Source of the DNA: Escherichia coli
Lineage (GTDB): Bacteria > Pseudomonadota > Gammaproteobacteria > Enterobacterales > Enterobacteriaceae
NCBI RefSeq assembly: GCF_003334255.1
Contig: NZ_QOWU01000252.1
DNA length: 380 nucleotides
Strand: one strand, 5' to 3'
The notes under the pieces were generated by a model. It was given only the letters and a program-made list of their open reading frames with translations. It had not been told where the DNA came from and made no database searches. Within the stretch, counting starts at the first letter, position 1, and each line of letters opens with the position of its first letter. Positions 1 through 380 of the stretch are shown here, in pieces. Position numbers and translations under genes: made by a program.

Positions 1-7
1 GGTGGTG
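1..7 (+). promoter_or_regulatory. Possible Shine-Dalgarno-like element for L, embedded in the 3' end of the upstream gene
   Basis: The purine-rich GGTGGTG at 1-7 lies about 5-7 nt upstream of ATG 13. It is only a partial match to the AGGAGG consensus. Initiation of L may instead, or additionally, rely on translational coupling through the TGATG stop/start overlap. Confidence 0.3.
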
Positions 8-13
8 AACTGA
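1..13 (+). CDS. M: 3' terminus of upstream CDS, probably phage minor tail protein M (partial; 5' end outside window)
   Basis: In frame 2 (codons 2-4, 5-7, 8-10) the sequence gtg gtg aac reads V-V-N, followed by TGA at 11-13. As I recall it, lambda gpM ends ...EQVVN, and in lambda M lies immediately upstream of L. Only three codons are visible, so the call rests mainly on synteny with the confidently identified L gene downstream. Confidence 0.5.
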
Positions 14-380
14 TGCAGGATATTCACGAAGAAAGTCTGAACGAGTCGGTTAAGTCAGAGCAGTCACCGCGGGTGGTACTCTGGGAAATCGACCTGACGG
101 TGCAGGGCGGTGAGCGGTATTTTTTCTGCAATGAGCTGAATGAAAAAGGGGAGCCGGTGACCTGGCAGGGGCGTGAATATCAGGCGTACCCGATTGAGGG
201 GAGTGGCTTTGAGATGAACGGGAAGGGCAGCAGTGCCAGACCATCGCTGACGGTGTCCAATCTGTTTGGTCTGGTCACCGGGATGGCGGAAGACCTGCAG
301 AGTCTGGTGGGGGCCACGGTGGTCCGCCGCCGGGTGTATGCCCGTTTTCTGGATGCGGTGAATTTCGTTGCGGGCAATCC
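13..380 (+). CDS. L: Phage minor tail protein L, lambda gpL family (tail tip assembly); 5' end complete, 3' end beyond window
   Basis: ATG at 13-15, then an uninterrupted frame-1 reading frame to the window edge. Translation: MQDIHEESLNESVKSEQSPRVVLWEIDLTVQGGERYFFCNELNEKGEPVTWQGREYQAYPIEGSGFEMNGKGSSARPSLTVSNLFGLVTGMAEDLQSLVGATVVRRRVYARFLDAVNFVAGN. This aligns without gaps to the N-terminus of lambda gpL as I recall it (MQDIRQETLNE...VVLWEIDLT..GGERYFFCNE.NEKGEPVTWQGR.YQ.YPI.GSGFE.NGKG...RP.LTVSNL.G.VTGMAEDMQSLVG.TVVRR.VYARFLDAVNFV.GN). The many conservative substitutions indicate a lambdoid homolog, not lambda itself. No in-frame stop occurs in the window. Confidence 0.9.
   Translation, partial: MQDIHEESLNESVKSEQSPRVVLWEIDLTVQGGERYFFCNELNEKGEPVTWQGREYQAYPIEGSGFEMNGKGSSARPSLTVSNLFGLVTGMAEDLQSLVGATVVRRRVYARFLDAVNFVAGN

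Follow-up and report, generated by a model that had tools for sequence, protein, structure and literature searches.

The DNA analysed here is a stretch of 380 nucleotides from Escherichia coli, hereafter the window. Read directly from its letters, it starts with ggtggtgaacTGATGcagg / ggtggtgaacTGATGcaggatatt, which places GGTGGTG at positions 1-7, TGA at 11-13, and ATG at 13-15. Prophage DNA that is 100% identical to the window is carried by IAI39, ATCC 25922, and many other E. coli genomes, and Stx-converting and other lambdoid phages match it at 95-96%. Judged by these matches to both E. coli chromosomes and lambdoid phages, the window is lambdoid prophage DNA. It is a widespread one: of 5426 complete E. 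coli genomes, 2989 carry it with varying identities, the median copy number per genome being two. As the reference copy we used that of E. coli IAI39 (locus L001), in which the window corresponds to L001 6001-6380. The RefSeq gene order of this copy consists of a truncated tape measure gene, a 113-aa 'phage tail protein', the 'phage minor tail protein L', a C40 peptidase (K), a tail assembly protein (I), J, and a Lom-family protein. The IAI39 copy belongs to a damaged, defective prophage: in L001 1-5679, the tape measure gene is missing its N-terminus and follows an IS629-family transposase pseudogene and a group II intron reverse transcriptase.

The first bases of the window (1-13, + strand) hold the 3' end of a gpM-type gene, encoding a distal tail protein: a Gln codon ends at base 1, GTG GTG AAC (Val-Val-Asn) takes up positions 2-10, and the stop codon TGA stands at 11-13. 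Given that only these three sense codons of the upstream frame lie inside the window, the window by itself cannot establish an upstream gene, and it is the flanking context that settles its nature. The earlier note had anticipated a continuous upstream reading frame with similarity to gpM ending at position 13, and had named stops just upstream of the window as the outcome that would speak against it. Such a frame is indeed found in IAI39, where it stays open for 113 codons (L001 5672-6013) without any such interruption. Its translated product gives a full-length family-profile match to the Pfam model PF05939, 'Phage minor tail protein' (model 2-108 of 108, residues 6-112 of 113, E 2.7e-28, 98.9 bits), and matches the PDB chain 8iyk_M, 'Tail tip protein M' (E 8e-26), as well as PHROG 14 (phrog_14); NCBIfam contains no model matching the M protein. 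On the strength of these matches the upstream protein is a gpM homologue and, because the alignment with 8iyk_M reaches the shared C-terminus EQVVN, the stop at 11-13 is the natural end of the family.

The remainder of the window, from position 13 to 380 (+ strand), is a single open frame of 122 codons, MQDIHEESLNES..., representing the first 122 codons of the minor tail (hub) protein L. The full gene, as translated from IAI39, has 232 codons (L001 6013-6711). Its product belongs to the family TIGR01600 (phage_tail_L), which it matches over the whole model (1-224 of 224) with 360.2 bits against a curated cut-off of 70.75, and it aligns with lambda gpL in the PDB (8iyk_L, E 1e-124) with residues 1-232 on residues 1-232. 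Since this alignment runs from Met1, the ATG at 13-15 is the usual start of the family.

Between both genes lies the pentamer TGATG (11-15, + strand), in which the stop codon of M (11-13) and the start codon of L (13-15) have A13 in common, giving a spacing of -1. This arrangement, proposed in the earlier note from the letters of the window, is confirmed by those letters and by the RefSeq coordinates of IAI39, where L001 6013, equivalent to window position 13, is at the same time the CDS end of M and the CDS start of L. The junction thus belongs to the -1 (TGATG/TAATG) overlap class, as the last base of the stop is the first base of the start and both frames, which run on the same strand, are shown by their profile and PDB matches to code for real proteins. 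The pentamer itself is not rarer than expected by chance, with one occurrence in the window against 1.14 expected, so that the overlap owes its significance only to the two genes that it joins. That the stop of M and the start of L truly overlap by one base in TGATG at 11-15 is a correct but ordinary observation: the M/L junction is already known as phage lambda's own, and the class of feature is a common and well-described one.

A Shine-Dalgarno-like element, GGTGGTGA (1-8, + strand, with its A just left of the window), is predicted from its duplex with the 16S rRNA. Together with the preceding A, AGGTGGTGA agrees at 8 of 9 positions with the extended Shine-Dalgarno sequence AGGAGGTGA, the complement of the 16S 3' tail; in RNA form, AGGUGGUGA agrees with AGGAGGUGA at 8 of 9 positions. 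The element falls within the final codons of M, 4 nt ahead of the ATG of L. The duplex predicted between L and the 16S 3' end has an energy of -12.1 kcal/mol, a value reached by only 1.6% of all positions of the tail operon and 1.2% of its NTG positions; for other genes of the same operon the predicted energies are -9.5 (M), -7.4 (J), -2.6 (K), and -0.3 kcal/mol (I). The predicted pairing stops 4-5 nt before the AUG, in agreement with the distance of about 5-10 nt before the start expected of a Shine-Dalgarno element. We read this spacing as canonical, with the G that would pair with C1535, equivalent to the last G of GGAGG, located 7 nt from the AUG. In the lambda record, the depositors annotate a ribosome-binding site at the equivalent AGGT. 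The suggestion that GGTGGTG could act as an internal ribosome-binding site for L therefore finds computational support, with this heptamer being part of a strong predicted Shine-Dalgarno-like element. The same GGTGGTG also encodes the conserved Val-Val of the C-terminal EQVV of M, and GTG is the commonest Val codon in E. coli, meaning that part of the motif may be present for coding reasons. With the preceding Gln codon included, these bases spell the conserved Gln-Val-Val of M in codons that are common in E. coli. In phage mEp460, the Val-Val codons are GTC GTG, and a separate GGAGG is found.

The closest known counterpart is the M/L junction of lambda itself, where M (13099-13428) and L (13428-14126) show the same -1 TGATG overlap. 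The gene pair, its order, and the one-base TGATG are all shared, and CAGGTGGTGAACTGATGCAGGATAT is identical over 25 nt. No longer run of identity links this prophage to lambda across M and L, two genes whose proteins are 44% (M) and 77% (L) identical to those of lambda. This suggests that the junction has been conserved. However, the evidence from the 25-nt run is not decisive, since other identical runs of 20-23 nt fall inside L. There are also differences: contrary to lambda, the M protein of the prophage has diverged and is longer (113 aa against 109 aa), its gene has a GTG start and overlaps H by 8 nt instead of 4, and the copy examined sits in the defective prophage of IAI39. The spacings of the IAI39 prophage are -8 (H/M), -1 (M/L), +10 (L/K), and -4 (K/I). 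Among the about twenty junctions of the lambda late operon, four are -4 (A/W, W/B, Z/U, and H/M), two are -1 (M/L and stf/tfa), and one is -8. Short overlaps are thus frequent in the same operon.

For the comparison with relatives, a set of close relatives was formed by 80 IMG/VR loci with an L protein 95-100% identical, obtained from a search with the L protein, and deeper diversity was covered by tblastn and annotated regions; tblastn gave 1173 records, and about 17 lineages were sampled. The TGATG junction is present in 71 of the 80 loci. In these loci the same CAGGTGGTGAACTGATG connects L with two strongly differing types of M allele, which end in …EFSAEFKQVVN and …DFSCTIEQVVN, and the blastn matches of many phages begin at base 323 of the 342-nt M gene, 20 nt before the M stop. 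This position of the phage matches reveals a mosaic boundary just upstream of the junction, with the junction itself travelling together with L. A few loci carry interrupted genes: in L042, L043, L044, L047, and L048 the M frame is open for just 72 codons ahead of TGATG, and in L064 there is a stop at codon 11 of L (MQDIHEESLS and then the stop). All six are probably defective copies, from decaying prophages.

The spacing between M and L, as annotated, varies widely in the lineages sampled. A spacing of -1 is shared by this prophage, vB_EcoS-569R3, lambda, and vB_EcoS-689R5; a spacing of -4 is found in Serratia Swain, Burkholderia E173 (where the upstream gene is annotated as 'tail fiber protein' and not identified as M), HK75, and N15; mEp460 and Pseudomonas Medea1 have +9, and three Drexlerviridae (T1-like phages) have +39, +61, and +66. 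The genes are much further apart in Salmonella phage 29485, with two genes inserted (+728), and in Gifsy-2, where the insertion comprises a lom-like gene and, in the opposite orientation, sodC (about +1350). An 'overlap of 20' in the Vibrio phage Va_90-11-287_p41 (L091 1039) was not counted, as the annotated start of L is a CTG without a Shine-Dalgarno sequence and probably represents a mis-call of the start codon.

Among the close relatives, nine of the 80 loci, with an L about 97% identical to that of the window, have a gene of an OmpC-family porin and a terminator-like hairpin between M and L. In L060 (593-2503) the inserted gene encodes a porin of 387 aa (NF007841, 497 bits), located precisely at the M/L junction, and the hairpin, AGGGGCGCATTGCGCCCCT followed by a T-run, is found at 2462-2480; the same insertion occurs in L045, L046, L053, L054, L055, L059, L062, and L066. 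In these porin-type loci L has its own separate Shine-Dalgarno-like GGGTGGA. This looks like a classic moron insertion uncoupling L from M; with a porin gene and a terminator-like hairpin in between, L cannot be coupled to M in those phages. In mEp460, an indel of 10 nt relative to lambda replaces the -1 overlap by a +9 spacer, bringing a TAG stop and a canonical GGAGG, while CTGATGCAGGATAT is kept (L004 1430-1455). The TGA ahead of the ATG of L is in this phage no longer the stop codon of a gene. Overlap and spacer designs thus interconvert easily. The homologous M/L pairs of HK75 (an HK97-type phage) and N15 also overlap briefly at stop and start, as the lambda-type pair does, but their overlap is -4 (ATGA; L093 1000-1033 in HK75, L094 991-1024 in N15) and there is practically no Shine-Dalgarno sequence before L (-2.5 kcal/mol). 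To judge from these sequences, HK75 and N15 should depend on reinitiation far more than the strong-Shine-Dalgarno junction of the lambda type. Taken as a whole, homologous M/L pairs make use of every design, including -1 with a strong Shine-Dalgarno sequence, -4 without it, short spacers with a canonical one, and kilobase insertions. As shown by the porin insertions, by Gifsy-2 and phage 29485, and by the spacers of +9 to +66, the overlap and any coupling derived from it are clearly dispensable in this gene family; given that every design occurs, coupling is an option in tail-tip assembly and not a requirement.

The earlier note had taken the overlap as a sign of translational coupling. Coupling of M and L by termination-reinitiation is plausible, and may account for part of the synthesis of L. 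M and L share one late transcript without intergenic DNA between them, their UGA and AUG having one base in common. A ribosome terminating at the UGA (11-13) would sit directly above the start of L; its small subunit, anchored four bases upstream through base pairing between AGGUGGUGA and the 16S 3' end, would re-initiate at the AUG (13-15). Free ribosomes would also bind the same strong Shine-Dalgarno site independently. This combined account, where termination-reinitiation and free ribosomes both feed L from the same strong site, is the one that we regard as probable, if by no means certain. Several lines of background are consistent with the coupled part. In reporter tests, 13 of 14 native overlapping pairs, five of the 14 being from E. 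coli, were strictly coupled, with a varying contribution of the Shine-Dalgarno sequence (PMC6728339). An added distance of about 20 nt nearly abolished coupling (PMC10666635), and the -1 spacing of M/L lies well inside that distance. Spacings of -4 and -1 are by far the commonest between co-directional genes in bacteria, and are enriched among the subunits of heteromeric complexes (PMC10666635; PMC12548453), and M and L are subunits of one complex (PMC10721106).

Closely similar arrangements are those of trpE-trpD and of hsdM-hsdS from EcoKI, which likewise share one stop/start base and whose products are subunits of one complex (PMC12548453; PMC3510504). The difference is that coupling of the trp pair has been shown experimentally and that of EcoKI has been reported, whereas in the case of M/L we infer it. 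Full-text literature searches returned nothing specific to the coupling of lambda M and L, and a reanalysis paper from the literature on M/L expression mentions neither the overlap nor coupling. In lambda, amber mutants place M and L in separate complementation groups. L would accordingly still be made when M is terminated prematurely, which argues that any coupling is partial.

The main alternative would be independent initiation, with L served essentially by free ribosomes on its own Shine-Dalgarno sequence and its output being independent of M, and with the overlap reflecting nothing else than compact packing after a small deletion, or arising as a neutral by-product. The Shine-Dalgarno sequence of L is the strongest of the tail-tip operon and would permit independent initiation, and no occluding structure is found over it, so a free 30S subunit should have access. 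Relatives also work with M and L apart, as in the porin-type loci, Gifsy-2, phage 29485, and the spacers from +9 to +66, and in mEp460 ten nucleotides are enough to swap the -1 overlap for a +9 spacer with GGAGG; moreover, one of the 14 overlapping pairs tested in reporters (bioF) was not coupled (PMC6728339). However, the other 13 of those pairs were coupled (PMC6728339), and a ribosome terminating at 11-13 physically covers both the AUG at 13-15 and the Shine-Dalgarno sequence, so the translation of M must interact somehow with initiation at L. We consider complete independence of L from M possible but rather doubtful.

Two further mechanisms find much less room at this junction. Coupling through RNA unfolding, where the ribosome-binding site of L would be locked in a hairpin that only ribosomes translating M could open, might be read from the 60-nt fold, in which a weak hairpin pairing CAGUUGUAC... 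with ...GGUGAACUG lies over the Shine-Dalgarno sequence. Nevertheless, the folds of the junction are no more stable than those of shuffled sequences (z = +0.47 for 120 nt, z = -0.53 for 60 nt), Rfam gives no match at the junction, and the 5' arm of the hairpin is not kept in lambda, which has CAGCGCAGAG in its place. A stable structure sequestering the downstream ribosome-binding site, as this mechanism requires, is thus not found, and RNA structure, which we hold to be highly improbable as an explanation, was rejected as the main mechanism for its shuffled-like folding and its empty Rfam search. Recoding, by means of a -1 frameshift or a stop bypass at the end of M giving an M-L fusion protein, would profit from the frame of L being -1 relative to M and open from window position 1, and a programmed frameshift does operate in G/GT of the same operon. 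Against it, the junction has no slippery heptamer, as G GUG AAC does not follow the X XXY YYZ pattern, no downstream stimulatory structure appears in the 60- and 120-nt folds, and in the lambda tail-tip structures gpM (109 aa) and gpL (232 aa, from Met1) are two distinct proteins of full length. A frameshift fusion is hardly conceivable under these circumstances and was rejected, as no slippery site is present and the proteins are separate in the solved structures.

Returning to the combined account, the claim of the earlier note that overlaps of this kind help to maintain the stoichiometry of assembly proteins can be considered in light of the lambda tail tip, which contains gpM as a ring of six subunits and gpL as a trimer (PMC10721106), with 6 gpM and 3 gpL chains in each of the PDB entries. 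The two proteins are therefore not equimolar in the virion, and any maintained M:L ratio would be 2:1 and not 1:1. Coupling could be helpful here, since a downstream yield not exceeding the upstream one fits the need for twice as much M as L. A parallel is offered by EcoKI hsdM-hsdS, which forms an M2S1 (2:1) complex from genes with a 1-nt overlap described as translationally coupled (PMC3510504), and whose 2:1 ratio resembles the 6:3 of gpM and gpL. It may even be speculated that the -1 overlap is a dosing device and not simply a coupling one, with about half of the ribosomes finishing M re-initiating on L and giving a 2:1 synthesis of M and L, a reading that we find unlikely. If it were true, the lineages that lost the overlap, through the porin insertion or the +9 spacers, would have re-tuned the ribosome-binding site of L itself in compensation.

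For annotation, the junction fixes where M ends and L begins in this family of prophages; beyond that it has little importance, adding one more case of the gene-pair architecture that is most frequent in bacteria and phages. A practical consequence arises for the engineering of lambda-type tail operons, as the ribosome-binding site of L lies inside the last codons of M, which is relevant to the insertion of cargo at this junction. The porin insertion would be a natural example of cargo placed between M and L.
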